DNA of 64,000 nucleotides from the NCBI RefSeq assembly GCF_013167455.1, contig NZ_CP038328.1; one strand, 5' to 3'. Positions 38,757 to 63,363 of this stretch are shown here, piece after piece (the stretch's first letter is position 1; the number at the start of each line of letters is the position of its first letter). The translations under genes and the position numbers were made by a program. Under the pieces are notes generated by a model. That model was not told the origin of the DNA. It saw nothing but the letters and a program-made list of their open reading frames with translations, and did no database searches. The DNA comes from Escherichia coli O157:H7. Its GTDB lineage: Bacteria; Pseudomonadota; Gammaproteobacteria; Enterobacterales; Enterobacteriaceae.

Positions 38757-42158
<3,402 letters not shown>

Positions 42159-42215: not shown

Positions 42216-42887
42216 TCAGCGACCAATCACCACAACCTGACCACCGTCCCCTTCGTCTGCCGTGCTGATCTCTTGAGAAACCACGCGTGACCCCACGCGC
42301 ATTTCACCGTACAGAACCGGCAGAACATTGCCCTGGGCAACCATGTTATCCAGTGAGGAGAAATAGGTGTTCTGTTTGCCGTTATCCGTTGTCTGTGTAC
42401 GGGGAGTTCTGGCTTTCGGTGCCAGCATCTGCGCCACACCACCGAGCACCATACTGGCACCGAGAGAAAACAGGATGCCGGTCATACCACCGGCCCCAAT
42501 GGCTGCCCCCCATGCTGCAAGGGTGGCTCCGGCGGTAAAGAATGATCCGGCAATGGCGGCAGCCCCCAGGACAATCTGGAATACGCCACCTGACTTGGCC
42601 CCGGCGACTCTGGGAACAATATGAATCACAGCGCCATCAGGCAGAGTCTCATGTAACTGCGCCGTTAACCCGGACGTGCTGACGTCCCGCCCGGTAATCC
42701 GTACCTGATACCAGCCGTCGCTCAGCTTCTGACGAAACACCGGGAGCTGTGTGGCCAGTGCGCGGATGGCTTCAGCCCCCGTTTTCACACGAAGGTCGAT
42801 GCGGCGGCCAAATCGTTGCAAATCCCCGTAAAGGCAGATGCGCGCCATGCCCGGTGACGCCAGAGGGAGTGTGTGCGTCGCTGCCAT
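42216..42887 (-). CDS. I: Tail assembly protein I
   Basis: 223 aa MAATHTLPLASPGMARICLYGDLQRFGRRIDLRV... Confidence 0.9.
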   Translation of the reverse strand: MAATHTLPLASPGMARICLYGDLQRFGRRIDLRVKTGAEAIRALATQLPVFRQKLSDGWYQVRITGRDVSTSGLTAQLHETLPDGAVIHIVPRVAGAKSGGVFQIVLGAAAIAGSFFTAGATLAAWGAAIGAGGMTGILFSLGASMVLGGVAQMLAPKARTPRTQTTDNGKQNTYFSSLDNMVAQGNVLPVLYGEMRVGSRVVSQEISTADEGDGGQVVVIGR

Positions 42888-43528
42888 TTGTCGGTATACC
42901 TCTCTCGTTTGCTCAGTTGTTCAGGAATATGGTGCAGCAGCTCGCCATCACCACAGTAAATGGCGGCATGATTCGGCACCGATGAACCAAAACAGCACAG
43001 CAGCACATCGCCCGGTTGTGCTGATGACAACGGCACCTGATACAGCCCTGTGGCCTCCAGATTATCCAGATAGAGATTCTGACCGTGACGCCACCAGTCA
43101 TCCTCGCGATGAAAATCCGGCATCTCAATCCCCGCCAGATGATAAGCATCCCGGAACAGCGTGTAACAGTCCGTCACCCCGTGCTCAAAGCGCCGCCCGG
43201 TGAGATGCGGCACACAGCGGAACTTATGAATCGTCCCCCGGCAGACCAGCCACCACGGCAAATCACTCTGCACCTGCAGCCGCCGGTCGGCCTCACTCAG
43301 CCAGGGCAGACCACCGGGGTGGCTGTGGACCAGCGCCACAATCTCACCCTGCATTTCTGCCTGCAGCCAGTCTTCCGGCGACATACGGAAATACGCCTCC
43401 GGCTCACCGGAGATATTCACGCAGGGGAAATATCTTTCCCCCTCCGGCGTGCTTACCACGAAGCCGCACGACTCCGCTGGCGCACATCGCCGGGCGTGCG
43501 CCAGAATCGCTGATTCTGTCTGTGTCAT
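42785..43528 (-). CDS. K: Tail assembly protein K (NlpC/P60 plus JAB/MPN-like); true start may be internal
   Basis: MTQTESAILAHARRCAPAESCGFVV...HSHPGG (JAMM-like) and Cys-His peptidase segment; overlaps I. Confidence 0.85.
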   Translation of the reverse strand: MTQTESAILAHARRCAPAESCGFVVSTPEGERYFPCVNISGEPEAYFRMSPEDWLQAEMQGEIVALVHSHPGGLPWLSEADRRLQVQSDLPWWLVCRGTIHKFRCVPHLTGRRFEHGVTDCYTLFRDAYHLAGIEMPDFHREDDWWRHGQNLYLDNLEATGLYQVPLSSAQPGDVLLCCFGSSVPNHAAIYCGDGELLHHIPEQLSKRERYTDKWQRRTHSLWRHRAWRASAFTGICNDLAAASTFV

Positions 43529-43533
43529 GGGAT

Positions 43534-44232
43534 TTACTGCGAAAGTTTGTTAATGGAAAGGAAGCCGCCAAAGTTGCCGACGTTATTGCGGAACTTACAA
43601 CCGCTCAGGCATTTGCTGCATTTATCCTTCGTGATATCGGACGTTGGCTGGTCATATTCATCCGCGACCGCCGGACCGTGATAACCGCACTCATCGCCGC
43701 GATAGGTCCAGGTGCAGGTGTTGGCCAGCATGATACGTCCCGGAAAAACAGCGCCGTCCGTTTCCGTCGGCGTGGACAGTACAAAAGAGGCACTCACCGC
43801 GCTCAGTTCGCTGCACTGCTCAATGCGCCAGCGGCTGATCACCTCCTGCTCCGGATCGGCGTCACTGTTTCCGTTGACGAAGTTCACCGCATCCAGAAAA
43901 CGGGCGTAAACCTTACGCCGGACCACCGTTCCGCCGACCAGACTCTGCAGATCTTCCGCCATCCCGGTGACCATACCGTACAGGTTAGAAACCGTCAGCG
44001 TGGGGCGCGTACTGGTGCCTTTGCCATTCAGTTCAAAACCACTCCCCTGAATGGGATACGGCTGATACTGTCGCCCCTGCCAGGTGACCGGCTCACCTTT
44101 TTCGTTCTGCTCATTACAGAAAAAATAACGTTCTCCACCGACCTCTGTCAGATCGATTTCCCAGAGCACCACGCTGGCCGACTGCTCCGCACGGGTGCAT
44201 TCATTCAGTGTTTCCTGCCGGATATCCTGCAT
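43534..44232 (-). CDS. L: Tail tip assembly protein L
   Basis: 232 aa MQDIRQETLNECTRAEQSASVVLWEIDLTEVGGERYFF... Confidence 0.93.
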   Translation of the reverse strand: MQDIRQETLNECTRAEQSASVVLWEIDLTEVGGERYFFCNEQNEKGEPVTWQGRQYQPYPIQGSGFELNGKGTSTRPTLTVSNLYGMVTGMAEDLQSLVGGTVVRRKVYARFLDAVNFVNGNSDADPEQEVISRWRIEQCSELSAVSASFVLSTPTETDGAVFPGRIMLANTCTWTYRGDECGYHGPAVADEYDQPTSDITKDKCSKCLSGCKFRNNVGNFGGFLSINKLSQ

Positions 44233-44561
44233 CAGTTCACCACCTGTTCAAACTCTGCGCTGAACTCAACACGCAGCATACTGACCCGCGACGACCATTT
44301 TGCGCAGGTCACCTTTATCTGCCGCCACTCATAAGGCGGCGTCCACAGAAAGGCCTTCCAGCCCCCGAGCTCAGCCAGAAACGACTCAAGCGCCGTGGCC
44401 TCCCAACGGGGAACAGAAAGCGTCACGCTGTACGTTTTCAGGTCGGCATTCAGCCCGGCAGGCGCTCGCTGGGAATAGCCATCACCAAAGCGCACCTTTC
44501 TTACGGAAGGGGCCGAAGCCACATCCATACCGGGTTTCACTTTCCAGCGGAAGGTTTTCAT
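44232..44561 (-). CDS. M: Tail tip protein M
   Basis: 109 aa MKTFRWKVKPGMDVASAPSVRKVRFGDGYSQRA... Confidence 0.93.
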   Translation of the reverse strand: MKTFRWKVKPGMDVASAPSVRKVRFGDGYSQRAPAGLNADLKTYSVTLSVPRWEATALESFLAELGGWKAFLWTPPYEWRQIKVTCAKWSSRVSMLRVEFSAEFEQVVN

Positions 44562-47107
44562 CGTCCACCTCCGGAGAACAGACCACCATCGCGCATCTGC
44601 CCGGTCACAACATCCATTGCCGCCTTACGGGCTACGTCATAAACCGCCTTCAGTGCCTGTGGCCCTATCTGACCGTTCGTGCCGTCGTTGTTAATCACCA
44701 CATGGTTATTCTGCTCAAACGTCCCGGACGCCTGCGACCGGCTGTCCGCCATGCTGCCCGGTGTACCGACATAACCGCCGGTGGCATAGCCGCGCATCAG
44801 CCGGTAAAGATTTCCTACGCCAATCCGGCTGGTTGCCTCCTTCGTGAAGACAAATTCACCACGGTGAACAATCCCCGCTGGCTCATATTTGCCGCCGGTT
44901 CCCGTAAACCCTCCGGCCGCAAAATGGAATTTCGCCGCAGCTGCCTGAATGGCTGTACCGCCTGACGCTGATGCGCCGCCGCCAATGGCGCTGCCTATAC
45001 TTCCGACAATCCCCACCATTGCCTGCTTAAGCAGAATTTCTGTCATCATGGACAGCACGGAACGGGTGAAGCTGCGCCAGTTCTGTTCACTGCCGGTCAG
45101 CATCGCCGCCATATTCTGTGCAATACCATCAAAGGTCTGCGTGGCAGCACTTTTAACCTGCGACATACTGTCCGTGGCGCTCTCTTCCCACTCACTCCAG
45201 CCTGACCTGAGGCCTGCCATCCAGCTCCCGCGAAGCTGGTCTTCAGCTGCCCAGGTCTTTTTCTGCTCTGACATGACGTTATTCAGCGCCAGAGGATTAT
45301 CGCCATACTGTTCCTTCAGGCGCTGTTCCGTGGCTTCCCGCGCTGCCTGCCGGTCAGTCAGCCCCCGGTTTTTTGCATCAATGGCGGCCCGTTTTGCCCG
45401 TTGTTGCTGTGCGAATTTATCCGCCTGCTGTGCCAGCGCGTTCAGGTGCTCCTGATAGGTGACCTTGTCGCCAAGTACAGCCAGCTGGCGTTTGTACTCC
45501 AGCGTCTCGTCTTTATGCGCCAGCAGGGATTTCTCCTGTGCGGACAGCTGGCGACGTTGTGCCGCCTCCTCCAGTACCGCGAACTGACTTTCTGCCTTCC
45601 ACAAATCCCGGCGCTGCTGGCTGATTTTCTCATTCGCTCCGGCATGCTTCTCCAGCATCCGGAGTTCTGCCTGAAGCGTCAGCAGGGCAGCATGAGCACT
45701 GTCTTCCTGACGATCGCCCGCAGACACCTTCACGCCGGACTGTTTCGGCTTTTTCAGCGTCGCTTCATAGTCCTTTTTCGCCGCCGCCATCAGCGTGTTG
45801 TAATCTGCCTGCAGGATTTTCCCGTCTTTCAGTGCCTTATTCAGTTCTTCCTGACGGGCGGTATATTTCTCCAGCGGCGTCTGCAGGCGTTCGTAAGCCT
45901 TCTGCGCCTCTTCGGTATATTTCAGCCGTGACGCTTCGGTATCGCTCTGTTGCTGCGCATTTTTGTCCTGTTGACTCTGCTGCTCAGCCTTCTTTCGGGC
46001 GGCTTCAAGCGCAAGACGGGCCTTTTCACGATCATCCCAGTAACGCGCCCGCGCTTCATCGTTAACAAAATAATCATCCTTGCGCAGATTCCAGATATCG
46101 TCCGCTTTCTTAAACGCGGCCTCTGCCTTAATCAGCATCTCCTGCGCGGTATCAGGACGACCAATATCCAGCACCGCATCCCACATGGATTTGAATGCCC
46201 GTGCTGTCCTGTCTGCCCAGGTTTCCAGCGTGCCCATGTTCTCTTTCAGGCGGCGGGTCTGGTCATCAAACCCTTTCGTCGCGGCCTCGTTCGCCGCCTG
46301 CAATGCCCCGGCTTCTTCGCCGGAACGCTGCAACTGAGCAACATACGCAATCTGCTCCGCCGTCACGTTATGGAACTGGCGCGCCATCGCTGTCAGCCCC
46401 GACGTCGGGTCAGTGGTCAGCTTCCCGAAGGCTTCAGCGACCTTGTCCACCTCCACGCCTGATGCAGAGGAGAAACGCGCCACACTCTGGCTGATGGACG
46501 CAATCTGAGCCTCACCGCTTACCCCCGCCTTAACCAGTGCGCTGAGTGACTCGCTGGTCTGGTTAAACGTCAGCCCTGCCGCCTGCCCGGCTCTGGACAG
46601 GACCAGCATACGATCTGCCGTCAGCCCGGCCTGATTGCCGGAAAGGACCAGCGTTTTGTTGAAATCGGACAGGGTTGAGTTGCCCTGATACCAGGCATAC
46701 GCCAGCGCACCGGTCGCCACCGCCAGCGAGGTGGCCCCCACCATCGGCAGGGTGATCGCACCGGCAAGCCCCCGGAACATGGGGATCATCCCGCCGAAGG
46801 AGTCCTTCACCTGCCCCCCCTGTTGCAGCAGGATCAGCCACGGACTTTGCCCACCTGCAAGCTGCGTGGCCACGTCAGTGAACTGCGCAGGCAGCATACG
46901 CATGGCGGCTTTATACTGCCCGACGGAAATTCCCGCTTTCTGTGCAGCCAGCGCCTGCCGGCTCATCGACTGTTCAACGACTGCCGCTGTTTTTTTCGCA
47001 TCACTTTCCGTACCGGAAAAATGACGCCTGACTCTGGCCATCTGCTCGTCAAATCTGGCCGCATCCAGACTTAAATCAACGACCAGATCGCCTACCGGTT
47101 CAGCCAT
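44558..47107 (-). CDS. H: Tail tape measure protein H
   Basis: 849 aa, coiled-coil rich with Gly-rich C-terminus; between T and M. Confidence 0.93.
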   Translation of the reverse strand: MAEPVGDLVVDLSLDAARFDEQMARVRRHFSGTESDAKKTAAVVEQSMSRQALAAQKAGISVGQYKAAMRMLPAQFTDVATQLAGGQSPWLILLQQGGQVKDSFGGMIPMFRGLAGAITLPMVGATSLAVATGALAYAWYQGNSTLSDFNKTLVLSGNQAGLTADRMLVLSRAGQAAGLTFNQTSESLSALVKAGVSGEAQIASISQSVARFSSASGVEVDKVAEAFGKLTTDPTSGLTAMARQFHNVTAEQIAYVAQLQRSGEEAGALQAANEAATKGFDDQTRRLKENMGTLETWADRTARAFKSMWDAVLDIGRPDTAQEMLIKAEAAFKKADDIWNLRKDDYFVNDEARARYWDDREKARLALEAARKKAEQQSQQDKNAQQQSDTEASRLKYTEEAQKAYERLQTPLEKYTARQEELNKALKDGKILQADYNTLMAAAKKDYEATLKKPKQSGVKVSAGDRQEDSAHAALLTLQAELRMLEKHAGANEKISQQRRDLWKAESQFAVLEEAAQRRQLSAQEKSLLAHKDETLEYKRQLAVLGDKVTYQEHLNALAQQADKFAQQQRAKRAAIDAKNRGLTDRQAAREATEQRLKEQYGDNPLALNNVMSEQKKTWAAEDQLRGSWMAGLRSGWSEWEESATDSMSQVKSAATQTFDGIAQNMAAMLTGSEQNWRSFTRSVLSMMTEILLKQAMVGIVGSIGSAIGGGASASGGTAIQAAAAKFHFAAGGFTGTGGKYEPAGIVHRGEFVFTKEATSRIGVGNLYRLMRGYATGGYVGTPGSMADSRSQASGTFEQNNHVVINNDGTNGQIGPQALKAVYDVARKAAMDVVTGQMRDGGLFSGGGR

Positions 47108-47534
47108 ACCGGACTCCTCCTGCGATCCCTTCTGATACTGTCATCAGCATTACGTCATCCTCCGTCATGTCCGCCACATCCGGGGAAGCGGGGATAACTT
47201 CATTCCCGTCCGGGCCAAAACGAACGCCTCCAGCAAGCCCTGCCGCTTTCTGCATCAGCACATCATCTTCAGGCTCTTCGTCAGCCTCACGCCGGTTCAG
47301 CAGACTGAAATCCAGCGGATGCATATCCGGATCGCTGAAAAACAGGCTGAGCACGGTGTACGTCAGCCCGGAAAAGTGCATATCCAGCAGAACATCATGA
47401 AAATAATGGGTACTGTAAAAGCGGTGCCAGTCGGCATACTCCGTGGATGACATCCCGGCAAGCATGGCACGCCAGTCGGGTCGCCCCATCTCGCGCGCCA
47501 GTTTCAGGGCAAAACTCAGCTCACCGTCGAACAC
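47100..47534 (-). CDS. T: T reading frame of tail assembly chaperone, expressed as a G-T fusion by -1 frameshift
   Basis: ORF-track frame (V)FDGELSFALKLAREMGRPDWRAMLAGMSSTEYADWHRFY...; entered from G via the slippery site. Confidence 0.85.
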   Translation of the reverse strand: MFDGELSFALKLAREMGRPDWRAMLAGMSSTEYADWHRFYSTHYFHDVLLDMHFSGLTYTVLSLFFSDPDMHPLDFSLLNRREADEEPEDDVLMQKAAGLAGGVRFGPDGNEVIPASPDVADMTEDDVMLMTVSEGIAGGVRYG

Positions 47535-47938
47535 TTTCCCGCAGAAACAGGCTCTGCAGGCCCGGCGTCCTCTGCCTGTTCAGGGGCATCATTCACCACA
47601 AACTCATACATACCGGACAGCCGGTACACCACGTTTTCAGCATGAGAAATTGCCTCCGCGGGCCAGGTGGTAAGCACTTCCTGCTCAATCTGTTTAACGG
47701 CTTCATTCATGGACGGCATCTGCGTCTTCTTCGGATGGTTATGCCACAGGGACATCGCCACCACAAAAGCGCCGGTTCTGATGGCGTCTTCCACAGTAAA
47801 CTTCCGGTTGCTGTCTGACTCCGCCTGTTCTGCCTGCCGTTTCATCAGGGCGAGATGCTCAATACGCTGCAGGGCTGACAGTTCAGAAAGCGTGACGGTC
47901 ACGCCGTTATGTTCAAATGATTCGGTTTTCAGGAACAT
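47516..47938 (-). CDS. G: Tail assembly chaperone G
   Basis: 140 aa MFLKTESFEHNGVTVTLSELSALQRIEHLALMKRQ... Confidence 0.93.
   Translation of the reverse strand: MFLKTESFEHNGVTVTLSELSALQRIEHLALMKRQAEQAESDSNRKFTVEDAIRTGAFVVAMSLWHNHPKKTQMPSMNEAVKQIEQEVLTTWPAEAISHAENVVYRLSGMYEFVVNDAPEQAEDAGPAEPVSAGKCSTVS
47534..47540 (-). other. Programmed -1 ribosomal frameshift slippery heptamer G-GGA-AAG for G-T fusion
   Basis: Minus strand reads GCG GGA AAG TGT in the G frame; the -1 frame continues as the T ORF. Confidence 0.8.
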
Positions 47939-47953
47939 CGCTGATTCTCCGGA

Positions 47954-48724
47954 TTAACTGGCGGTGACGTTGATTTCTGCAACCGCAGCAAACTCACCAT
48001 TACCGGATACGACCGGAATGTTGACCTTGCCTGCAGCAACACCTTTCACGGTGATGGTCATACCACTGACCGACACGGTGGCTTTTGTTTTATCCGCAGA
48101 CACCGCACGGAAGCTCTTGTCGGTTGCGCCTTCCGGCTGGAATGCCACGGTCAGCGTCGTGCTCTGCCCTTTCACCACCGAGGTGCTGGCAGGCGTCACG
48201 GTCATGCCGGTTGCCGCTGTTACCGTGCTGCGATCTTCTGCCATCGACGGACGTCCCACGTTGGTGACTTTCACCGTGCGGGTGATCACTTCCTTCGCCG
48301 TCACCGCCTTACCGATACTGCTGACCCAGCCGCGGAACACATCGACCGTGCCGTTCGGGAAGCGGATTTTATAGGCACGGGTATCACCTTCATTAAACCA
48401 CGCCAGCAGCGCCTGCTGCCCCTGCTCTCCGGGCATCCACGCCAGCGTGAAGCTGGTATCTCCAGCGGATTTCTGCCCCTGTCCGGTCGCGGCCCAGTCC
48501 GCATCTTCATCATCGAGATAACTGTCGTCATAGGACTCAGCGGTCAGTTCGCCGGGCGTCAGGTCTTTAACCTTTGCCAGACGCGACCAGTCATTGTCTG
48601 AAAGCGGGTTTGCATATGGGTCGCCGTTCCCGTTATAAACCCACAGTGTGGTCCCGGCCCCTTTCACCGGTGCCAGAGGATTTGGTGTTGGCATATCGTC
48701 CTCACATTTCATAGGTAATGACAT
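47954..48724 (-). CDS. V: Major tail protein V (with C-terminal Ig-like domain)
   Basis: 256 aa [32 protein letters not shown]... Confidence 0.93.
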
Positions 48725-49097
48725 AAGTCAGATCGGCTGAACTCCACAGGCCCGCATCATCGTCGCGCCGGTAGTCATAGCCACTGGCCACCATACTGGT
48801 GATCAAATCTGATAGTGCCGGGATATCGCTCATCACCGGATAAATCCGGGACTCCATCCACGCATCCAGCTCTGAATCCGGCACCTGAGCAGGCAGGAAA
48901 ACTTCGATATGCAGCTCCGCCTGCCAGGTATCGCTGTCCAGCTCTTCGCCCGTGTATTCAGCGCCGGTGAGATAAACGGCAACTGCCGGAAAATCCGCCT
49001 CATCAAAAACAGCGGGGCGACCATCAAAAAACGTCGCCCCGGTGTCATGCTTCTCCAGTGCATCCAGTACGGCTGCACGGAGTTCAGTATGTTTCAT
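48702..49097 (-). CDS. U: Tail terminator protein U
   Basis: 131 aa [43 protein letters not shown]... Confidence 0.93.
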
Positions 49098-49672
49098 CGC
49101 TTTATTACCATTCTCAGTTGATGCTGCAGCGCATAGCCCAGCTCTTTCGGAAGACGTTCACGCCGTATCCGCTCAATATTCTGTTTAAACGCCGTGGTCA
49201 GCGGCACCGCCATCGGGATTTTCACCACATCAATGGGGTAACGGTTTTTCCCGGCCACACGCTGCATGACATGCCACCGGCCATTTTTCAGTTGCTGAAT
49301 AAACGCGCCGGGAATACGACGGTTTCCCACCACAAGCACGCTGCCGCCACCTTTCAGGGATGAACGCTGCCCCTTTTTACGACGCCTGCGTCGGGACAGG
49401 ACAACCCGCGCGTTACCCAGCTTGATTACGGGCAAATCCCCCCGGTTAACCTTGATTCTGGCCTGCGGATTTTTAACCGTGGCCCTTTTCAGCCTGGCCC
49501 TTTCCTTTACCAGTTTCCGGCGTACTCTTGTCTCACGGGCAACCTGTGACGCCGACTGCGATATCGCGGATGAAGCAACGCGGTTAATGGCCATTGCTGA
49601 CGCACCAGGCACCGCCGTTTTGCTGATACGACTGAGGTTTTCAACGGCCTGCTCAAGACCTTTTATGGCCAT
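49094..49672 (-). CDS. Z: Tail completion protein Z
   Basis: 192 aa, lambda gene order. Confidence 0.9.
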   Translation of the reverse strand: MAIKGLEQAVENLSRISKTAVPGASAMAINRVASSAISQSASQVARETRVRRKLVKERARLKRATVKNPQARIKVNRGDLPVIKLGNARVVLSRRRRRKKGQRSSLKGGGSVLVVGNRRIPGAFIQQLKNGRWHVMQRVAGKNRYPIDVVKIPMAVPLTTAFKQNIERIRRERLPKELGYALQHQLRMVIKR

Positions 49673-49683
49673 ACATCCCCCCT

Positions 49684-50037
49684 TCAGCGACGACGGTTAA
49701 CGGCAGGCGGTACGCCCCGCCCAAGCCAGAGATGACAGCTTCCGCCATCATCCGTCGAAATCCGGTCTATCCAGAAGTTTTCCTCACCGATGGTCAGCGT
49801 GTCTCCACGCCGCAGTTGCCGCACATCATCAGTCCGGACAAACAGGGACGGGCTGGAGCCTTCAACACGCACGCCCTGTCCGGCATAGCTGATATTTTCA
49901 GGGTCATCAAAAACACCACGTATTACTGCGCCGGACTGCTCACCGGATGTCATGGTGGCTGACGTTCCCATGTACCCGCGTATCGTTTCATCGGCGCGGG
50001 CAATGGCAGCATCGAACAGGTTATCGAAATCAGCCAC
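49684..50037 (-). CDS. FII: Head-tail joining protein FII
   Basis: 117 aa MADFDNLFDAAIARADETIRGYMGTSATM... Confidence 0.93.
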   Translation of the reverse strand: MADFDNLFDAAIARADETIRGYMGTSATMTSGEQSGAVIRGVFDDPENISYAGQGVRVEGSSPSLFVRTDDVRQLRRGDTLTIGEENFWIDRISTDDGGSCHLWLGRGVPPAVNRRR

Positions 50038-50048
50038 AGCGCCTCCCG

Positions 50049-50447
50049 TTATTGCATTCTGGCCAGGCCGCGCTCTGTCATTTCGGCTGCCACACCGGCA
50101 GAGACACGAAACGCCGTTCCCGGCAGCACAAATGCCACAGGTTCATCCCGCGTGACGTGAAGTGCATCAGTATGCAGCTTCACCAGTGCCACGACCGTGA
50201 CCAGTTCAGACGTATCCAGAATCACGGTATCCGGCTGCGCTGATCCCACCTCATTTTCATGTCCGGTCAGCACATTTTCCCGGCTGAGAGGGGTGTCCTG
50301 ACCGGCAGTTTCATCCGTGTCATCAAGCTCCTCTTCCAGCTCTGCCACACGGAGCGCCAGTTCTTCTTTCGTCCCCGTCAGGCTGACATCACGGTTCAGT
50401 TGTTCACCCAGCGAGCGGAGACGGGCAATCAGTTCATCTTTCGTCAT
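50049..50447 (-). CDS. FI: DNA packaging protein FI
   Basis: ORF-track protein contains MTKDELIARLRSLGEQLNRDVSLTGTKEELALRVAEL...; start trimmed to give 132 aa. Confidence 0.9.
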   Translation of the reverse strand: MTKDELIARLRSLGEQLNRDVSLTGTKEELALRVAELEEELDDTDETAGQDTPLSRENVLTGHENEVGSAQPDTVILDTSELVTVVALVKLHTDALHVTRDEPVAFVLPGTAFRVSAGVAAEMTERGLARMQ

Positions 50448-50488
50448 GGACTCCTCCACAGAAAAACAATGGCCCCGAAGGGCCATGA

Positions 50489-51514
50489 TTACGCCAGTTG
50501 TACGGACACGAACTCATCAGGGTCAGCCAGCAGCATCAGCGGTGCTGACTGAATCATGGTGAACTCACGCGCCGGATCGCCGGTGGTCACCCAGTTTTTC
50601 GGGTAACGGGCAGAGGCGTTAATGCCTTCGCGCTGTGCGTCCGCATCCTGAATGCAGCCATAGGTGCGCAGACCGCGTGCCTGAGTGTTCCCCAGCACCA
50701 TCGTGTTGTCCGGCAGGAAGTTCTTTTTGACGCCGTTTTCCACGTACTGTCCGGAATACACGACGATGGCCACATCGCCATACATTCCCTTATAAGACAC
50801 CGCTTTGCCCAGGTCTTTTACCGCTGTCTCCAGTTCGGAATGAGAGCCGCGACGGGTATCCAGCTTCTCCCTGACGGCTTTGAAGGAACGGAACAGCGCC
50901 CAGCCTTTCGGGTCAAACACGATGATATTCACCACGCCGCTGGCGTTCAGCGCGTAGGCTTCGATATCGTCGGTCGGGTCATACGTGGACTTGTCACGCT
51001 TGCTCCACTCCGTGCCGCCGGACTGCGTGATGTTGTTCGCCGCACTGCGGCCCATATCCACCTCAACCGGATCGAAGGCTTCACCGGTCATGGTGTATTT
51101 GCCCTTGAGCACGGCAGAAACTGCCTGCATCTCTTCGACCTGAGCAATGGCCAGCTCTTCGTCACGCATGTTCTGCATGATGATGCGACGGCGGCGGTAA
51201 GCCGGGTCCGCCAGATTCTGCGGATCTTCATCCGGCAGGCGACGCAGGGTCATCTGCGGATTCACTTCATGCTTCGGCTTGACATATCCCGGCGTAAATT
51301 CAGAGGTGGAGCCGCCACGGGAACGGATAACCTCACCAGAAACAATCGGCGAAACGTACAGCGCCATGTTTACCAGTCCCGGAATTTGTGAGAGATAGAC
51401 TTTCTCCGTGGTGAAGGGATAGCTCTCACGGAAAAAGAGACGCAGAAACAGCGGATCAAACTTAAATTTCTGCTCATTTGCCGCCAGCAGTTGGGCGGTT
51501 GTGTACATCGACAT
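50489..51514 (-). CDS. E: Major capsid protein E
   Basis: ORF-track protein contains MSMYTTAQLLAANEQKFKFDPLFLRLFFRESYPFTTEKVY...; start trimmed to give 341 aa. Confidence 0.95.
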   Translation of the reverse strand: MSMYTTAQLLAANEQKFKFDPLFLRLFFRESYPFTTEKVYLSQIPGLVNMALYVSPIVSGEVIRSRGGSTSEFTPGYVKPKHEVNPQMTLRRLPDEDPQNLADPAYRRRRIIMQNMRDEELAIAQVEEMQAVSAVLKGKYTMTGEAFDPVEVDMGRSAANNITQSGGTEWSKRDKSTYDPTDDIEAYALNASGVVNIIVFDPKGWALFRSFKAVREKLDTRRGSHSELETAVKDLGKAVSYKGMYGDVAIVVYSGQYVENGVKKNFLPDNTMVLGNTQARGLRTYGCIQDADAQREGINASARYPKNWVTTGDPAREFTMIQSAPLMLLADPDEFVSVQLA

Positions 51515-51569
51515 AAAAAAATCCCGTAAAAAAAGCCGCACAGGCGGCCTTTAGTGATGAAGGGTCAGG

Positions 51570-51902
51570 TTAAACGATGCTGATTGCCGTTCCGGCAAAC
51601 GCGGTCCGTTTTTTCGTCTCGTCGCTGGCAGCCTCCGGCCAGAGCACATCCTCATAACGGAACGTGCCGGACTTGTAGAACGTCAGCGTGGTGCTGGTCT
51701 GGTCAGCAGCAACCGCAAGAATGCCAACGGCAGCACCGTCGGTGGTGCCATCCCACGCAACCAGCTTACGGCTGGAGGTGTCCAGCATCAGCGGGGTCAT
51801 TGCAGGCGCTTTCGCACTCAATCCGCCGGGCGCGGTTGCGGTATGAGCCGGGTCACTGTTGCCCAGCGGCTGGTAATGGGTAAAGGTTTCTTTGCTCGTC
51901 AT
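51570..51902 (-). CDS. D: Head decoration protein D
   Basis: ORF-track protein contains [42 protein letters not shown]... Confidence 0.95.
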
Positions 51903-51911
51903 AAACATCCC

Positions 51912-53211
51912 TTACACTGGTGTGTTCAGCAAATCGTTAACGGCATCAGATGCCGGGTTACCTGCAGCCAGCGGTGCCGGTGCCCCCTGCATCAGACGAT
52001 CCAGCGCAGTATCACTGCGCGCCTGTGCACTCTGTGGTGCTGCGGCCAGAATGCGGCGGGCCGTTTCCACGGTCATACCGGGGGTTTCTGCCAGCACGCG
52101 GGCCTGTTCTTCGCGTCCGTGAGCCTCCTCACAGTTGAGGATCCCCATAATGCGGCTGTTTTCTGCCGCAACCGCAGCGGTGATCTGCGCGTTCACGTCC
52201 GGCTGCGCCGCGCTGGCGTTTTCGCCCTCCGTCGCTGGCACCACGCCAGTAACGTCAGCCTGCGAAGCAGTGGCTGAAACAGTTGTTGATTGAGTCTCTT
52301 TGGTCATTCGCCCTCCTGAGAGACGGGATTTACGTGCATCCAGTGCATCACGCATAACGGTGATCGCATCGGTGCTGTTGACAAGTTCATCAGCCAGTCC
52401 GGCATCAATGGCCTCCTGACCGCTGTACACTGCAGCCTCGGTATCCAGCACAGCCTGCACGGACAGGCCGGTATATGCCGACACCTTCTGCGCAAACATC
52501 CGGCGGGTTGCATCCATCCGGGACTGCAGTGTTTCCCGGACATCACCCGGTAGATGGCTGTAGGGGTTGCCATCCACCTTATGGCTGCCGCTGTAAATCA
52601 GCGTGATTTCCACGCCCTGTTTCTCCAGGGCAGCACCGTAATTACTGTGAGCCATCATGACGCCGATGGAGCCTGTCCGGGCGGTCTGCGTGACCAGACG
52701 CCGGGAGGCGGCGCTGGCAAGCAGCTGACCTGCACTGCAGTTCATGTCGTTGGCCAGCGCCCATACCGGTTTTATGTCTCGCACACGGGCGATGATGTCA
52801 GCACAGTCAAATGCTCCCGCCACCATCCCGCCCGGTGTGTCCATATCGAGCAGAATGCCGTCCACCATCGGATCGCTGGCAGCCTGTTGCAGACGGGCGA
52901 TAATGCCGTTGTAACCGGTCATTCCCGAATACGGCTGCAGCGCCCGCGTCCGGCTGACCAGCGTACCGGACACCGGCAGCACGGCGATGCCGTTCATGAC
53001 CTGATAACTCCGGGCCTGTCGTGGTCCGTCATCATCACCGGATAACGCCAGCGCCGCGGGTGCCTCTCCGGCAGTCAGGCTGTCGCCGGATACTGCATCC
53101 GTCAGGCGGCTGATCCCAAGCTGGCCTGCAAGCGCACAAAAGAAAACCCGCGCATAGGCGGGTTCAAGCATCAGCGGCTCATTAAAAGCCATGCTGGCAA
53201 TATGCGGGAGA

Positions 53212-53231
<20 letters not shown>
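51912..53231 (-). CDS. C: Prohead protease/minor capsid protein C (scaffold Nu3 nested in-frame in its 3' part)
   Basis: ORF-track protein contains (V)TAELRNLPHIASMAFNEPLMLEPAYARVFFCALAGQL...; start assumed at the GTG giving 439 aa. Confidence 0.85.
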
Positions 53232-56912
<3,681 letters not shown>

Positions 56913-56938
<26 letters not shown>

Positions 56939-57458
56939 TCAGCAACCCCGGTATCAGTTCATCCAGCGCGGCTGCTTTGTTCATGGCTTTGATGATATCC
57001 CGTTTCAGGAAATCAACATGTCGGTTTTCCAGTTCCGGAAAACGCCGCTGCACCGACAGGGGGATCCCGTCGAGAATACTGGCAATTTCACCTGCGATCC
57101 GCGACAGCACGAAAGTACAGAATGCGGTTTCCACCACTTCAGCTGAGTCTCTGGCATTCTTCAGTTCCTGTGCGTCGGCCTGCGCACGCGTAAGTCGATG
57201 GCGTTCGTACTCAATAGTCCCTGGCTGGAGATCTGTCTCGCTGTCCTGCCTCAGTTCTTCAACTTCCCGGCGCAGCTTTTCGTTCTCAATTTCAGCATCC
57301 CTTTCGGCATACCATTTTATGGCGGCGGCAGAGTCATAAAGTACCTCATTACCCTTGCCACCACCCCGCAGAACGGGCATTCCCTGCTCCTGCCAGTTCT
57401 GAATGGTACGGATACTCGCGCCGAAAATGTCAGCCAGCTGCTTTTTGTTGACTTCCAT
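56913..57458 (-). CDS. Nu1: Terminase small subunit Nu1
   Basis: 181 aa MEVNKKQLADIFGASIRTIQNWQEQGMPVLRGGGKGNEVLYDSAAAIKWY... Confidence 0.95.
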
Positions 57459-57635
57459 TGTTCATTCCACGGACAAAAACAGAGAAAGGAAACGACAGAG
57501 GCCAAAAAGCCCGTTTTCAGCACCTGTCGTTTCCTTTCTTTTCAGGGGGTGTTTTAAATAAAAACATTAGGTTACGGCGAAGAAGAACGGAAACGCCTTA
57601 AACCGGAAAATTTTCATAAATAGTGAAAAACCGCG

Positions 57636-57647
57636 AGGTCGCCGCCC
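57636..57647 (-). other. cosN: lambda 12-nt cohesive-end sequence (cosB lies between here and Nu1, cosQ on the other side)
   Basis: Plus-strand AGGTCGCCGCCC is the reverse complement of 5'-GGGCGGCGACCT-3'; surrounding sequence matches lambda cos as recalled. Confidence 0.85.
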
Positions 57648-57846
57648 CGTAACCTGTCGGATCGCCGGAAAGGACCCGCAAAATGATAATAATTATCATC
57701 TACATGTCACAACGTGCATCTACGCCATCAAACCACGTCAAATAATCAATTATGACGCAGGTATCGTATTAATTGATCCGCATCAACTTAACGTAAAAAC
57801 AACTTCAGACAATACAAATCAGCGACACTGAATACGGGGCAACCTC

Positions 57847-58041
57847 ATGTCAACGAAGAACAGAACCCGCAGAACAACAACCCGCAACATCCGCTTTCCT
57901 AACCAAATGATTGAACAAATTAACATCGCTCTTGATCAAAAAGGGTCCGGAAATTTCTCAGCCTGGGTCATTGAAGCCTGCCGTCGGAGGCTAACGTCAG
58001 AAAAGAGAGCATATACATCAATTAAAAGTGATGAAGAATGA
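57847..58041 (+). CDS. Small conserved protein at the phage right end (YlcI/DUF3950-like)
   Basis: 64 aa MSTKNRTRRTTTRNIRFPNQMIEQINIALDQKGSGNFSAWVIEACRRRL...; same position as the unnamed ORF near the lambda right end. Confidence 0.6.
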   Translation: MSTKNRTRRTTTRNIRFPNQMIEQINIALDQKGSGNFSAWVIEACRRRLTSEKRAYTSIKSDEE

Positions 58042-58205
58042 ACATCCCGCGTTCTTCCCTCCGAACAGGACGATATTGTAAATTCACTTAATTACGAGGG
58101 CATTGCAGTAATTGAGTTGCAGTTTTACCACTTTCCTGACAGTGACAGACTGCGTGTTGGCTCTGTCACAGGTTAAGTAGTTTGAATGATTAGCAGTTAT
58201 GGTGA

Positions 58206-58412
58206 TCAGTCAACCACCAGGGAATAATCCTTCATATTATTATCGTGCTTCACCAACGCTGCCTCAATTGCCCTGAATGCTTCCAGAGACACCTTATGTT
58301 CTATACATGCAATTACAACATCAGGGTAACTCATAGAAATGGTGCTATTAAGCATATTTTTTACACGAATCAGATCCACGGAGGGATCATCAGCAGATTG
58401 TTCTTTATTCAT
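58206..58412 (-). CDS. Hypothetical prophage protein (YbcW-like)
   Basis: 68-aa ORF in the bor-proximal region; family assignment from memory only. Confidence 0.45.
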
Positions 58413-58697
58413 TTTGTCGCTCCATGCGCTTGCTCTTCATCTAGCGGTTAAAATATTACTTCAAATCTTTCTGTATGAAGATTTGAGCACGTTGGCCTTA
58501 CATACATCTGTCGGTTGTATTTCCCTCCAGAATGCCAGCAGGACCGCACTTTGTTACGCAACCAATACTATTAATTGAAAACATTCCTAATATTTGACAT
58601 AAATCATCAACAAAACACAAAGAGGTCAGACCAGATTGAAACGATAAAAACGATAATGCAAACTACGCGCCCTCGTATCACATGGAAGGTTTTACCA

Positions 58698-59108
58698 ATG
58701 GCTCAGGTTGCCATTTTTAAAGAAATATTCGATCAAGTGCGAAAAGATTTAAACTGTGAATTGTTTTATTCTGAACTAAAACGTCACAATGTCTCACATT
58801 ATATTTACTATCTAGCCACAGATAATATTCACATTGTGTTAGAAAACGATAACACTGTGTTAATAAAAGGACTTAAAAAGGTTGTGAATGTTAAATTCTC
58901 AAGAAATACGCATCTTATAGAAACGTCCTATGATAGGTTGAAATCAAGAGAAATCACATTTCAGCAATACAGGGAAAATCTTGCTAAAGCAGGAGTTTTC
59001 CGATGGGTTACAAATATCCACGAACATAAAAGATATTACTATGCCTTTGATAATTCATTACTATTTACTGAGAGCATTCAGAACACTACACAAATCTTTC
59101 CACGCTAA
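58698..59108 (+). CDS. DUF1398-family prophage protein (YbcV-like)
   Basis: ORF-track protein contains [30 protein letters not shown]...; start set at the internal ATG with GGAAGG upstream. Confidence 0.6.
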
Positions 59109-59399
59109 ATCATCACGTCCGGTTTCTTCCGTGTCAGCACCGGGGCGTTGGCATAATGCAATACGTGTACGCGCTAAACCCTGTGTGCATCGTTATTAAT
59201 TATTCCCGGACACTCCCGCAGAGGAGTTTCCCTGTCAGGGCTGCGGACATAGTTAATCCGGGAATACAGTGACGATCCTTCGCATCTGACATACATTAAT
59301 AAATATTAACAATATGAGATTTCAACTCATTGTTTAGGGTTTGTTTAATTTTCTACACATACGATTCTGCGAACTTTAAAAAGCATCGGGAATAACACC

Positions 59400-59693
59400 A
59401 TGAAAAAAATGCTACTCGCTACTGCGCTGGCCCTGCTTATTACAGGATGTGCCCAACAGACGTTTACTGTTCAAAACAAACCGGCAGCAGTAACACCAAA
59501 GGAAACCATCACCCACCATTTCTTCGTCTCTGGAATTGGGCAGAAGAAAACTGTCGATGCAGCTAAAATTTGTGGCGGCGCAGAAAATGTTGTTAAAACA
59601 GAAACCCAGCAAACATTCGTAAATGGATTGCTCGGTTTTATTACTTTAGGCATTTATACTCCGCTGGAAGCGCGTGTGTATTGCTCACAATAA
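59400..59693 (+). CDS. bor: Bor lipoprotein (serum-resistance protein of lambdoid phages)
   Basis: 97 aa MKKMLLATALALLITGCAQQTFTVQNKPAAVTPKETITHHFFVSGIGQKK...; lipobox LITGC; opposite strand to lysis genes as in lambda. Confidence 0.93.
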   Translation: MKKMLLATALALLITGCAQQTFTVQNKPAAVTPKETITHHFFVSGIGQKKTVDAAKICGGAENVVKTETQQTFVNGLLGFITLGIYTPLEARVYCSQ

Positions 59694-59724
59694 TTGCATG
59701 AGCTGCCCATCGATATGGGCAGCT

Positions 59725-60186
59725 CTATCTGCACTGCTCATTAATATACTTCTGGGTTCCTTCCAGTTGTTTTTGCATAGTGATCAGCCTCTCTCTGAGG
59801 GTGAAATAATCCCGTTCAGCGGTGTCTGCCAGTCGGGGGGAGGCTGCATTATCCACGCCGGAGGCGGTGGTGGCTTCACGCACTGACTGACAGACTGCTT
59901 TGATGTGCAACCGACGACGACCAGCGGCAACATCATCATGCAGAGCATCATTTTCAGCTTTCGCATCAGCTAACTCCTTCGTGTATTTTGCATCGAGCGC
60001 AGCAACATCACGCTGACGCATCTGCATGTCAGTAATTGCCACGTTCGCCAGCTTCAGTTCTCTGGCATTTTTGTCGCGCTGGGCTTTGTAGGTAATGGCG
60101 TTATCACGGTAATGATTAACAGCCCATGACAGGCAGACGATGATGCAGATGAGCAGAGCGGAGATAATCGCGGTTATTCTGCTCAT
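59725..60186 (-). CDS. Rz: Spanin inner-membrane subunit Rz
   Basis: 153 aa with N-terminal TM and coiled coil; follows R. Confidence 0.93.
59784..59966 (-). CDS. Rz1: Spanin outer-membrane lipoprotein Rz1, embedded in Rz in the +1 frame
   Basis: 60 aa [46 protein letters not shown]... with lipobox and Pro-rich segment. Confidence 0.9.
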
Positions 60187-60659
60187 ACCTCACTCTCTCT
60201 GACCGTTCCGCCAGCTTCTTTGAATTTTGCAATCAGGCTGTCAGCCTTATGCTCGAACTGACCATAACCAGCGCCCGGCAGTGAAGCCCAGATATTACTG
60301 CAACGGTCGATTGCCTGACGGATATCACCGCGATCAATCATAGGTAAAGCACCACGCTCTTTAATCTGCTGCAATGCCACTGCGTCCTGGCTTTTGGGGG
60401 AGAAGTCTTTCAAACCAAGCTGTTTACGGTAAGCATCCCACCAGCGTGAAAGAAGCTGATAACGTCCGGCGGCTGTTGATTTGAGTTTGGGGTGTAGCGT
60501 GACAAGTTTGCGAGGGTGATCGGAGTAATCAGTAAACAGTTCGCCGCCAACAATAACATCATAACCGTGGTTACGTGTCGGTTGTCGCCCGTTATCCGTT
60601 CCTTCTGACCACGCCAACATATCGAGGAAGGCTTTACGCTGAGGATTAAGATTTTGCAT
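60183..60659 (-). CDS. R: Endolysin R (lytic transglycosylase), lambda R-like with divergent N-terminus
   Basis: 158 aa; ...[20 protein letters not shown]...[18 protein letters not shown]... matches lambda R except the first ~7 residues. Confidence 0.93.
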
Positions 60660-60963
60660 TTTTCACCCCTGTCAGTCGTTCCCAGAAGTACGTCAGTGCA
60701 ACCGAACCCATCGCACCACTAATCCCCGCTGTCGCGAGAATCATGTAAATACTGAATCCACTTTCGATGCTGATCAGGCCACCAATAACACCGGTGAATC
60801 CTGATACCACTATTTGAGCCAGAGCATTTATCCAACTCCACGTTGCTTTACTCTGCTTCACATCTATCAGGTAGCGGACCAGACCGCCCCAACCTGCGAT
60901 GATCAGCAAAACGAGCCAGAACGCTCCGGCAAGGCTCTCTTTTTCGTGCATATGAATAGCCAA
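60646..60963 (-). CDS. Holin (three-TM class, non-lambda S type)
   Basis: 105 aa with three hydrophobic segments and charged C-terminus; immediately upstream of and overlapping R; possible dual start MAIHM. Confidence 0.7.
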   Translation of the reverse strand: MAIHMHEKESLAGAFWLVLLIIAGWGGLVRYLIDVKQSKATWSWINALAQIVVSGFTGVIGGLISIESGFSIYMILATAGISGAMGSVALTYFWERLTGVKNAKS

Positions 60964-61164
60964 TGTTTCGCCGCCGACAAAAGGCCGGGACGTTAAATGT
61001 CAGAAATCAGGCTCACGGGGTAATTTAACGACAAAGCACGGAGTTGATGCTCCCCACAAGCCTGGAATAAAAAAGCCAGCATGTAGCTGGCAACAGAGGG
61101 CTAAGCAATATCAACTCAACAGCTGAAGACCCCCTGGCTGGGGTAGGTTGGAAGGCTACTCACC

Positions 61165-61205
61165 GTTCAGAAACAGAAAAGCCCAAGGCTTTAAACCTCG
61201 GGCTT
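61165..61205 (-). terminator. Rho-independent terminator between Q and the lysis genes (tR'-like)
   Basis: Minus strand AAGCCCGAGG-UUUAAAG-CCUUGGGCUU followed by UUUCUGUUUCUG. Confidence 0.55.
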
Positions 61206-61272
61206 GAATTTGGATTACTGCCAGTGCGTACAACATTGGCAAAATATCAGATTTACATAAAATATATGATTT

Positions 61273-61962
61273 TTAATCCAGTTTTGCAATATCTTGCTGT
61301 GAAAATGTGGTCTTTTGTTTTGAACGTGTTTTCGTTAAAAGCAATAAAGCTTGGCTATCAAGCTGTAGAAAAATGTGTTTCATTGCAACCCAGCGTTCAG
61401 TAAATGTCTCAGACCAGTTTTTTGATGTCACTCCCACCAGTGATGCCAGCTCCTGGTATTCATAGGTCTTACGCCCTGCCAGCTCGTTCTTCACATCCTG
61501 TGCCGCCAGCCAGATCAACTTCTTCAAACGTTCCAGTGTCTTACCTGCAATTTTCCTGGTACCCAACAGAGTCTTAAACTCGCTCCATGCCCACTGCGTT
61601 ATGGTGACCTGATGTTCCCAGCGAACACTTTCGCTGTAACTCCACAGCAACCACGCTTTCTGATGTTCTTCGAGAGACAGAACCGCGCGGCGCCATGACG
61701 AGGTTGAGAACTCAACCTGGCTGACCAGTGCAATGGATGAACCTTTTGCGTACGACTGCTTACCGGAAATCGGCGGATTATCCAGCGTAATCATCCTGCC
61801 AGTTACCTCATCCAGAATGCGCGGCTTCTTTCGTTTGTATGTACCAGTATCAAATTGTGCATGCTCCAGCCAGGCTTCAAGCTGTCCTTTCGTTGCTCCG
61901 CTCAAATCAGCGGTAGCCACAATGAGTTGCTCGCGGACATACTGTAAATATTGGGTATTCAT
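61273..61962 (-). CDS. Putative late-gene antiterminator Q (non-lambda type); assignment mainly positional
   Basis: 229-aa ORF between rusA/ylcG and the terminator-holin region; not similar to lambda Q as recalled. Confidence 0.5.
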   Translation of the reverse strand: MNTQYLQYVREQLIVATADLSGATKGQLEAWLEHAQFDTGTYKRKKPRILDEVTGRMITLDNPPISGKQSYAKGSSIALVSQVEFSTSSWRRAVLSLEEHQKAWLLWSYSESVRWEHQVTITQWAWSEFKTLLGTRKIAGKTLERLKKLIWLAAQDVKNELAGRKTYEYQELASLVGVTSKNWSETFTERWVAMKHIFLQLDSQALLLLTKTRSKQKTTFSQQDIAKLD

Positions 61963-62081
61963 GCGGCAGCTCCTTTCAGTGTTTTGGCGTAATTCTTCAG
62001 TATCCGGTAATCGGTCAAAACAGAACCAGGAAAACGATATAAGCGCAGGCGCATCCAGCGGTGGCGAAGACGTTCTGCCAT
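61959..62081 (-). CDS. Small protein YlcG-like (40 aa)
   Basis: Hand translation MAERLRHRWMRLRLYRFPGSVLTDYRILKNYAKTLKGAAA; stop overlaps Q start. Confidence 0.5.
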   Translation of the reverse strand: MAERLRHRWMRLRLYRFPGSVLTDYRILKNYAKTLKGAAA

Positions 62082-62095
62082 ATAAGACTCAAACA

Positions 62096-62458
62096 TCATT
62101 CATTCCCCAGTTCGGTGATGGTCAGCTCCAGCTTCCCACCTTTGGTAACGGGCATCTTCACAACACGGTAATCAACGACCTGAGCATCATCCAGCCAGAA
62201 ACCTGCTTTGGTGAGTGCGTCAAAAGCGGCTTTTTGCAGATTATCCAGGTCACGGCGACGGCGATCCGGCATGTGGCACTCAATACGGATTTTCACTGGC
62301 ATAGCCAGGCCGATATCCAGCATGGAGCCTTTGATGATTCGGGCGACGTTATCACGGTATGCCTGCCCTTCTGCGCTGATGTGCGTGCGCCCGCGATTAT
62401 GCCGGTAGTAGCGATTATTGCTCGGAGGCCAGGGTAATGTGATGCTGTAGGTATTCAC
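62096..62458 (-). CDS. rusA: Holliday junction resolvase RusA
   Basis: 120 aa [44 protein letters not shown]... Confidence 0.93.
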
Positions 62459-62745
62459 GCCTTAATAACCCCCTCTTTCAGCCAGATAACCTGTGTTCTC
62501 GCCATACCTTCCAGCGCGCATTCTTTTGCATATGCAGCATCGACAAAATGTGTGCGGCGGTCGATTTCGTCGTGGCAGGCAGAACATGCAATGGTGGCAA
62601 TCAAGTCTGGCGGTTTGGTACCGGTGCCGCACAATCCAGTCAGCCGGATATGTGCCAGTACAGACGTTTCAGGGTTGCCATTACATACGCCAGGGATTCT
62701 TACTTGGCATTCCCGACTACGCGCTGCTTTTCTCAAATCAGCCAT
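62455..62745 (-). CDS. DUF1364-family Cys-rich protein (YbcO-like, putative nuclease)
   Basis: ORF-track protein contains [42 protein letters not shown]...; start at the ATG with GGAGG 5 nt upstream. Confidence 0.75.
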
Positions 62746-62908
62746 GATTCCTCCTTGCTGCCAGTCGCAACCATTTTTTATCAACCAGGCTGGCGGTATA
62801 TCCGAGCAGTGTTGGTATTTCGGATGGCTTCAGCTCAGGTTTACGCTTACGACGATTTGGTACTTTGTAGATGTGTCCGTTCATGACACGAATAAGCGGT
62901 GTAGCCAT
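62738..62908 (-). CDS. ninE: NinE-like protein (56 aa)
   Basis: Hand translation [61 protein letters not shown] overlap with ybcN stop. Confidence 0.6.
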   Translation of the reverse strand: MATPLIRVMNGHIYKVPNRRKRKPELKPSEIPTLLGYTASLVDKKWLRLAARRNHG

Positions 62909-63363
62909 TACGCCTCCTGCTTGTCACGCAGCAGCTGGAACTCGCAGCTCTGTGGAATAGTCAGGTGGCAGCCAATATTCATCGCCCAGGCTTCAACCTT
63001 ACACAGGAAGACATACATCTCTCCGGTACCAAGATCGGAGGTATGGCGTAACGACTGGATAGTAGTGATTTCGCCGGTTACGACATCAACCAGGTCCTTG
63101 GTTTCATAACCGAGGTATGTGTGTTTGAGAGCATCTTTTACCCATGCTGAAGTAGCGAACGATTTCCCCCTGCTGATGAGGTATTCACTGATTTCGCTGT
63201 ACCACATGTGGCTGAGTGCATTCTGGGAAAGACTGCGTCTCTCGCGCCACGGTTTAAGCACCATGCGAAAGCATTTGCCGTCTTCCAGATAAGTCTGGAT
63301 CTGCTGACCGACAGCGGTGAAGTTACCGCGATGTAATTTGATGCCATCTTGTGGGAGGTTCAC
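62908..63363 (-). CDS. DUF1367-family protein (YbcN-like, DNA-binding)
   Basis: 151 aa [55 protein letters not shown]... Confidence 0.75.

Follow-up and report, generated by a model that had tools for sequence, protein, structure and literature searches.

The stretch of DNA analyzed here (64,000 nucleotides (nt) of contig NZ_CP038328.1 from Escherichia coli O157:H7, hereafter the window) contains a lambda-like prophage whose Q-holin-R region is, with high confidence, the late-gene control and lysis cassette of this prophage, composed of modules that derive from different lambdoid lineages. The prophage is read on the minus strand and adjoins minCDE and ompT; the window is 100% identical to several finished E. 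coli O157:H7 genomes. Three modules would be brought together in the cassette: a DLP12/82-type nin region that has at its end a Q82-family antiterminator with its own cis-acting site; a holin with three transmembrane segments, of the PS3/ST64T gp13 (LydA) family; and lambda-type R, Rz/Rz1, bor and cos together with lambda structural genes. The genes and sites run in the order RusA-YlcG-Q-pR'-terminators-holin, and Q, holin, R, Rz, Rz1 and bor are all intact open reading frames (ORFs) in the ORF list. The genes of the cassette and its immediate surroundings are the following (aa, amino acids):

61959-63363, minus strand: non-lambda nin region with NinB/YbcN-like, NinE, YbcO, RusA and YlcG genes (Pfam and NCBIfam matches; no blastn match to lambda)
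61273-61962, minus strand: Q antiterminator of the Q82 family, 229 aa (PF06323, PHROG 304)
60646-60963, minus strand: holin of the LydA / PS3-ST64T gp13 type (PF16083, PHROG 785)
60183-60659, minus strand: endolysin R, lambda-type lytic transglycosylase, 158 aa (BLASTP to lambda R, PDB 1AM7)
59725-60186, minus strand: Rz, the i-spanin (Pfam PF03245, E 5e-53; 98.5% nt identity to lambda Rz)
59966-59784, minus strand: Rz1, the o-spanin, embedded in Rz in the +1 frame (PF06085, E 3e-20)
59400-59693, plus strand: bor, serum-resistance lipoprotein (Pfam PF06291, E 1e-30; 98.3% nt identity to lambda bor)

The boundary between the non-lambda and the lambda-type parts is sharp. In a blastn comparison with the lambda genome (NC_001416), the window shows 97% identity across positions 39199-57647 (J to Nu1) and 96.5% identity across 57648-60654 (cos, the ybcV/ybcW region, bor, Rz and R), with zero matches for 60655-64000. 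Pairwise alignment scored over 30 columns at a time yields 40-53% identity to lambda upstream of ~60664 and 80-87% from ~60650 on, and farther downstream the sliding identity stays at 80-100%; the homology with lambda ends within ~15 nt of the R start codon. A three-way alignment of the window, lambda and phage PhiR47_2 (PV340567.1) puts the break at the same place. The first recognizable lambda sequence is CAGCGTAAAG, at codon 7 of R (~60641). The junction can be described as follows:

60641-60659, minus strand: module junction, with the R start codon at 60659, the 14-nt holin/R overlap at 60659-60646 and the first lambda-like bases from ~60641 (lambda alignment)

An earlier note on this DNA, made from the letters and a list of ORFs, had described R, Rz/Rz1, bor, cos and the head and tail genes as close lambda homologs, and had placed a recombination junction at the S/R boundary; both statements are borne out by the blastn matches and by the position of the identity drop. 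As read from the alignments, the joint between non-lambda and lambda-type DNA is the 14-nt overlap of the holin stop codon with the R start codon. The R gene starts before the holin gene ends, its first 14 nt running up to the last base of the holin stop codon (60646), so that the 3'-terminal bases of the holin gene double as R codons 1-5, and the first five or six codons of R would accordingly belong to the holin module. The N-terminus of R differs from that of lambda R, as the earlier note had also pointed out (MQNLNPQ in the window vs MVEINNQ in lambda; 4 of the first 6 residues differ by BLASTP), apparently because these codons lie in or beside the overlap and travel with the holin module.

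In principle, Q and the holin could be very diverged versions of lambda Q and S, in which case there would be no recombination joint at all. This is very improbable: nucleotide identity falls from ~85% to random within ~15 nt rather than gradually, and the two proteins belong to Pfam families different from those of lambda Q and S. The similarity to the lambda counterparts is negligible in BLASTP comparisons (E 9 for the holin against S, E 3.9 for Q against lambda Q) and in profile-profile comparisons (hhalign probability 0.1% and 9%, respectively), and the same holin and the same type of Q are paired with other partners in other phages. At the DNA level, this evidence refutes divergence from lambda Q and S as the explanation, and between 60655 and 61962 no remnant resembling lambda S or Q was seen. 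A chimeric assembly, or an artefact confined to a single sequence, is hardly conceivable as the source of the joint; nothing was found in its favor, and it is refuted by the distribution of the block: the 1780-base-pair (bp) Q-holin-R block is contiguous in 829 of the 5426 complete E. coli genomes (at least 80% coverage), is 100% identical in several independently finished O157:H7 chromosomes, and is also present in the genome of an isolated phage, PhiR47_2. An apparent extra junction at 61094 in strain NR1441 is due to an insertion of an IS66-family element and is not a module boundary.

Together with the corresponding prophages of O157:H7 and other E. coli, the PhiR47_2 genome is among the closest known parallels to the entire arrangement. 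It has the same gene order (NinB-NinE-YbcO-RusA-YlcG-Q-holin-R-Rz-bor), with 97% nt identity over 3.2 kb, and carries the same TTG/AIH holin allele as the window. The two differ downstream of bor and in R, which is split in PhiR47_2 into two coding sequences annotated as 'lysozyme R' by a 1-nt deletion in a C-run (positions 4842-5317 of the PhiR47_2 record); this could be either a sequencing error or a real frameshift.

The holin/endolysin overlap, judging from comparison of related loci, is a recurrent exchange point because, on the one hand, varied endolysins follow one holin family and, on the other hand, R homology starts at the same place behind other holins. The holin family found in the window precedes five different endolysins in five other phages, namely, the PS3/ST64T type, two different lysozymes, a Gifsy-2-like lysozyme and a GH19 enzyme. 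The genes of four of these five endolysin types begin with ATGCAAA within the overlap, and homology is lost immediately beyond the holin stop codon. R genes that follow other holins in other E. coli genomes likewise become homologous to the window R from R nt 15-18 onward. The gp13 holins of phages PS3, ST64T, L and ST160 have the same length as the window holin, 73% aa identity to it, and the same 14-nt overlap with the endolysin gene; they differ in starting with MAKRM behind GGAGG and in the different, 132-aa endolysin encoded downstream, and in ST64T the upstream Q is 21-like.

The endolysin itself is a lambda-type R. It is 94% identical to lambda R at the aa level (BLASTP) and matches the lambda lysozyme structures (PDB 1AM7, E 2e-100, and 3D3D); the catalytic Glu19 is retained within a WSEGT motif, as read from the sequence, and the N-terminus (MQNLNPQRK) is polar, with no signal-anchor (SAR) segment, as expected of a lambda R transglycosylase. 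The Pfam search yielded no family for R at E <= 0.01, so the identity of R was settled by BLASTP and PDB matches; in NCBIfam, neither Q nor R nor Rz was assigned to a family, and the holin match was at noise level. Because R lacks a signal-anchor N-terminus, it would need a hole-forming holin. Comparison with lambda along R and the genes behind it reveals a second identity step inside R, near 60390:

R nt 1-18: 55.6% identity to lambda, with 4 non-synonymous codon changes
R nt 19-270: 84.5% identity, with 33 synonymous and 3 non-synonymous changes
R nt 271-477: 96.1% identity, with 6 synonymous and 2 non-synonymous changes
Rz: 98.5% identity, with 1 synonymous and 4 non-synonymous changes
bor: 98.3% identity, with 4 synonymous and 1 non-synonymous change

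The diverged 5' half of R recurs at 95.2% identity in E. coli WP7-S17-ESBL-04, where it sits behind a lambda-family holin, which suggests that this part of R was acquired from a different R lineage and was joined to the rest of the gene by a homologous crossover near 60390. The two spanin genes are typical of a two-component system, with Rz1 inside Rz and Pfam family matches for both proteins.

Upstream of the joint, the 229-aa protein, which had been proposed to be Q by position and to be unlike lambda Q, is now assigned on the basis of homology. It matches Pfam family PF06323 over residues 4-220 (E 1.4e-94; 316 bits, with the cut-off at 25; aligned to positions 1-217 of a profile of 220) and PHROG 304, 'anti-termination protein Q-like' (E 1.5e-108). 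The Q82, Qlambda and Q21 families correspond to PF06323, PF03589 and PF06530, respectively (Yin et al., PMC9388147). Judging by these full-length matches, the protein is a full-length antiterminator of the Q82 family, with antitermination activity predicted. It is 87% identical to a phage 434 protein annotated as 'Q82-like' and 70% identical to the Q protein of Gifsy-1, the annotation of which cites REGQ_BP82, the Q protein of phage 82. With lambda Q, there is no similarity (the BLASTP value given above) and the protein is outside the lambda Q family; with the Q21 family, there is no Pfam match, and in a tblastn search of the window with the 21-like Q of ST64T the best hit had E 0.35. The earlier note had allowed for the protein belonging to a non-antiterminator family, with the genuine Q elsewhere; instead, the family is PF06323 and no second Q of the lambda, 21 or 82 type was found elsewhere in the window. 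The AlphaFold2 model of Q (mean predicted local distance difference test (pLDDT) score 87.8) has Qlambda and AlpA as its best fold matches in PDB, a likeness that was previously proposed from AlphaFold models (Wen et al. 2022). A single-sequence search of PDB with Q produced no matches, and a profile search only a TetR helix-turn-helix (E 1.6). Homology between the Q82 and Qlambda families was also considered as such and set aside, the profile-profile comparison being too weak.

The Q gene is followed by what can be predicted to be its own late promoter, pause element and terminators:

61261-61289, minus strand: predicted late promoter pR', with -35 TTGCAA (61289-61284), a 17-nt spacer AACTGGATTAAAAATCA and -10 TATATT (61266-61261) (promoter scan)
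61230-61254, minus strand: initially transcribed region with a sigma70-dependent pause element, the predicted +1 being the A at 61254 (read from the sequence)
61169-61205, minus strand: first intrinsic terminator (tR'-like), a 12-bp stem followed by UUCUGUUUCU (terminator scan)
61065-61091, minus strand: second intrinsic terminator, GCCAGC-TACAT-GCTGGC followed by UUUUUUAUUC (terminator scan)

The final codons of Q, stop codon included, contain the -35 element together with a portion of the spacer. The spacer AACTGGATTAAAAATCA presumably holds the Q-binding element (QBE); in phage 82, the QBE is between -35 and -10, within -31 to +30 (Wells et al., PMC4914094), and the window has a conserved block at this place. 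The window, phage 434 and Gifsy-1 all have the block ATTGCAAAACTGGATTAAAA in identical form, and it is largely conserved across 7 Q82-family loci; TTG.AAAA, ATT and TG.TAT are invariant in these 7 loci, the Q proteins of which are 48-100% identical. In the pR' region of phage 82, an extended -10-like element is followed by GCC at +15-17 and by a pause at +25/26, with a U at the pause end (Bird et al., PMC5001585). The window contains an extended -10-like TGATATTTT at +6 to +14 (61249-61241), GCC at +15-17 (61240-61238) and U at +25 (61230). Thus, the features described for the 82 pR' are present at the expected spacing and are conserved in the 7 loci, a correspondence at the level of the sequence that was established against the published description of phage 82. 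The likeness to phage 82 further includes Q of the same family, PF06323, and a nin region with RusA and YlcG, as the Gifsy-1 annotation notes for phage 82, whereas the downstream holin and R belong to other types. The two terminators are called at 61205-61179 and 61091-61075 in the scan itself; the first closes a leader RNA of ~80 nt, and the segment from +1 to the T-tract folds with -27.6 kcal/mol (z -4.1). In 434-type prophages, homology to the window stops at about +15, with unrelated genes beyond, which suggests that Q plus its promoter behaves as one unit.

Compared with lambda, the overall plan of the switch and the cassette is the same: Q, pR' with a terminated leader, holin, endolysin gene overlapping the holin stop codon, Rz/Rz1, bor and cos, with R, Rz and bor 94-98% identical. 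The differences are in Q (PF06323, not PF03589), in the holin (PF16083, unlike S) and in the spacer between Q and the holin gene, which is 309 bp in the window vs 676 bp in lambda and is devoid of orf-64. No tRNA genes were found in the entire window, hence none between Q and the holin.

By analogy with these systems, pR' would fire in the lysogen and the transcripts would stop at the first terminator, as an ~80-nt RNA. After induction, Q would bind its site while sigma70 holds RNA polymerase at +25, and, once loaded onto the polymerase, would allow readthrough of both terminators into holin, R and Rz/Rz1, across cos and into the head and tail genes; AACTGGATTAAAA is predicted to be needed for this Q-dependent readthrough. 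The holin would then make holes that free the soluble transglycosylase R, and the spanins Rz/Rz1 would disrupt the outer membrane. Promoter use, pausing and antitermination in this prophage are all proposed here from the sequence.

The holin belongs to the LydA family (PF16083, E 8.2e-22; 77.6 bits, with the cut-off at 28.4) and matches PHROG 785 (holin); gp13 of the Salmonella phages ST64T, PS3, L and ST160 is its 73% identical relative mentioned above. With lambda S (PF05106), there is no Pfam match in addition to the insignificant BLASTP and family-profile hhalign scores, in agreement with the earlier note, which had described the holin as unlike S. The hydropathy profile includes three hydrophobic segments (~11-29, 42-64 and 69-93), that is, three predicted membrane helices, with a net charge of +2 in the loop 30-41 and of +2 in the basic C-terminal residues 94-105. 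By the positive-inside rule, this suggests an N-out/C-in topology, the same class as lambda S105. In all these respects (profile match, small membrane protein, charged C-terminus, gene overlapping R by 14 nt), the protein conforms to the LydA type of holin.

The start of the holin gene deserves separate consideration. The protein is 105 aa long if translated from TTG 60963 and 101 aa long if translated from ATG 60951; NCBI PGAP annotates the 101-aa form alone, and the PhiR47_2 record the 105-aa form. The relatives of this holin start with MAKRM, MAKHM, MKRM or MRM behind a GGAGG Shine-Dalgarno sequence, and among the 83 relatives annotated with the long form, 81 have at least one Lys or Arg in their two- to four-residue extension. 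In lambda S107, it is the positive charge in the extension that makes the longer form an antiholin. In both the window and PhiR47_2, the sequence at the start region reads GGCGGCGAAACA-TTG-GCT-ATT-CAT-ATG, so that, compared to the family, all features of the upstream start are altered (60949-60985): GGAGG to GGCGG, ATG to TTG, Lys3 to Ile and Arg4 to His. The resulting AIH extension has neither Lys nor Arg and does not conform to a dual-start motif. The suggestion in the earlier note that MAIHM may be a dual start thus holds for the family but is not well supported for the window allele, where the first 'M' is a TTG codon and not an ATG. A working dual start, with TTG 60963 producing a 105-aa antiholin and ATG 60951 a 101-aa holin, like S107/S105 of lambda, is therefore unlikely, even though TTG is able to initiate translation, the relatives have the obvious motif behind GGAGG, the record of Serratia phage Eta mentions a 'possible dual start motif' and the longer form is the one annotated in PhiR47_2. 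Rather, the dual-start motif looks real for the family and decayed in the window, and this allele appears to have lost the antiholin start. A small hairpin beside or including the holin Shine-Dalgarno (60964-61010, minus strand) recurs in a Klebsiella phage and in ST64T, with some compensatory changes, and recalls the sdi structure of lambda; the RNA fold around the holin start is no better than that of shuffled sequences (z 0.26), and no sdi-like structure is claimed.

Several observations weigh against the reading of this region as a late switch and lysis cassette with an 82-type control. The 82-type assignment of Q and pR' draws on Pfam, on the annotations of others and on a verbal description of the 82 pR'; the promoter scan is weak when taken by itself (2 sites vs 0.8 expected by chance); and there is no recognizable Shine-Dalgarno sequence for either TTG 60963 or ATG 60951. 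The last point bears on the question whether the cassette, as a leftover from a defective prophage, has lost its function as a lysis switch. Defective lambdoid prophages are numerous in O157:H7, the start signals of the holin are weak, and in strain PV15-279 the icd copy of the block described below has no nin region and a truncated YlcG. All the same, a dead remnant is quite unlikely, given that Q, holin, R, Rz, Rz1 and bor are intact, with full-length family matches, that the cis elements are intact and conserved, and that PhiR47_2, deposited as a complete phage genome, has the same Q, promoter and holin allele. As a separate observation, O157:H7 PV15-279 contains a second copy of the Q-holin-R block in a prophage remnant at icd (positions 3778-5780 of the PV15-279 record), where the nin region is deleted and YlcG is truncated; because of this second block, O157:H7 holds two copies of the 82-type late switch.

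The leader of pR' has a counterpart among known small RNAs. The segment 61257-61178 (minus strand) matches the Rfam model of the Salmonella small RNA isrJ (RF01393) end to end (model positions 1-75) with 30.4 bits, below the gathering threshold of 37; the E value of the match is 0.013 in a 6.6-kb search and 0.0004 in a 221-nt search. The window leader and IsrJ of Gifsy-1 share the 5' UGUAAAUCUGAUAU, the CAAAUUCAAGCC motif and the terminator hairpin, whereas their central portions differ. The true isrJ of Gifsy-1 (100 bits) is located directly behind the same promoter block as the pR' of the window (positions 3990-4121 of the Gifsy-1 record); the difference is that the isrJ unit is parted from Q by an IsrK/c4-antirepressor insertion. 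Because isrJ sits behind the same promoter block after the insertion, IsrJ has the appearance of a terminated leader transcribed from a Q82-type late promoter, a connection that was not found stated in the papers searched. That the transcript of this segment is a pR' leader homologous to IsrJ is probable. The more far-reaching proposition, that the window leader (~61254-61170, minus strand) is the E. coli counterpart of IsrJ, that Gifsy-1 IsrJ is a displaced pR' leader and that the RNA is made constitutively and has a role in trans, is at present a speculation with rather long odds, notwithstanding the precedent of the pR' leader of Stx phages (StxS), which acts as a small RNA (Sy et al., PMC7547250). 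If it is true, constitutive synthesis of an IsrJ-like RNA, which could act in trans like StxS, would be expected in O157:H7 and in ~15% of finished E. coli genomes.

Elsewhere in the prophage, positions 30750-35260 are occupied by a cargo block flanked by two copies of the 3' part of the lambda-type tail-fibre-assembly gene (30750-30881 and 34547-35260). The block adjoins an ISEc8 element and encodes an S-adenosylmethionine (SAM) methyltransferase, two ferritin-like proteins and a manganese catalase, an arrangement suggestive of an insertion or duplication where the tail-fibre region ends.

The arrangement described here is an ordinary and widespread one, with annotations already available in RefSeq and in a phage genome on deposit; that lambdoid phages swap Q, holin and endolysin modules where genes meet is textbook knowledge of their mosaicism. 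The Q-holin-R block is found at >=99% identity in 687 records, with 100% in O157:H7 strains, and the RefSeq labels of its products are 'bacteriophage antitermination protein Q', 'phage holin family protein' and 'glycoside hydrolase family 24 protein'. With respect to annotation, the value of the analysis is that the variable N-terminus of R becomes a by-product of the holin/R overlap and that the late-switch type of one O157:H7 prophage, an 82-type Q with its pR', is set. It is the type of the late switch that decides which Q proteins of co-resident prophages, those of Stx phages included, could cross-activate the late genes of this prophage.

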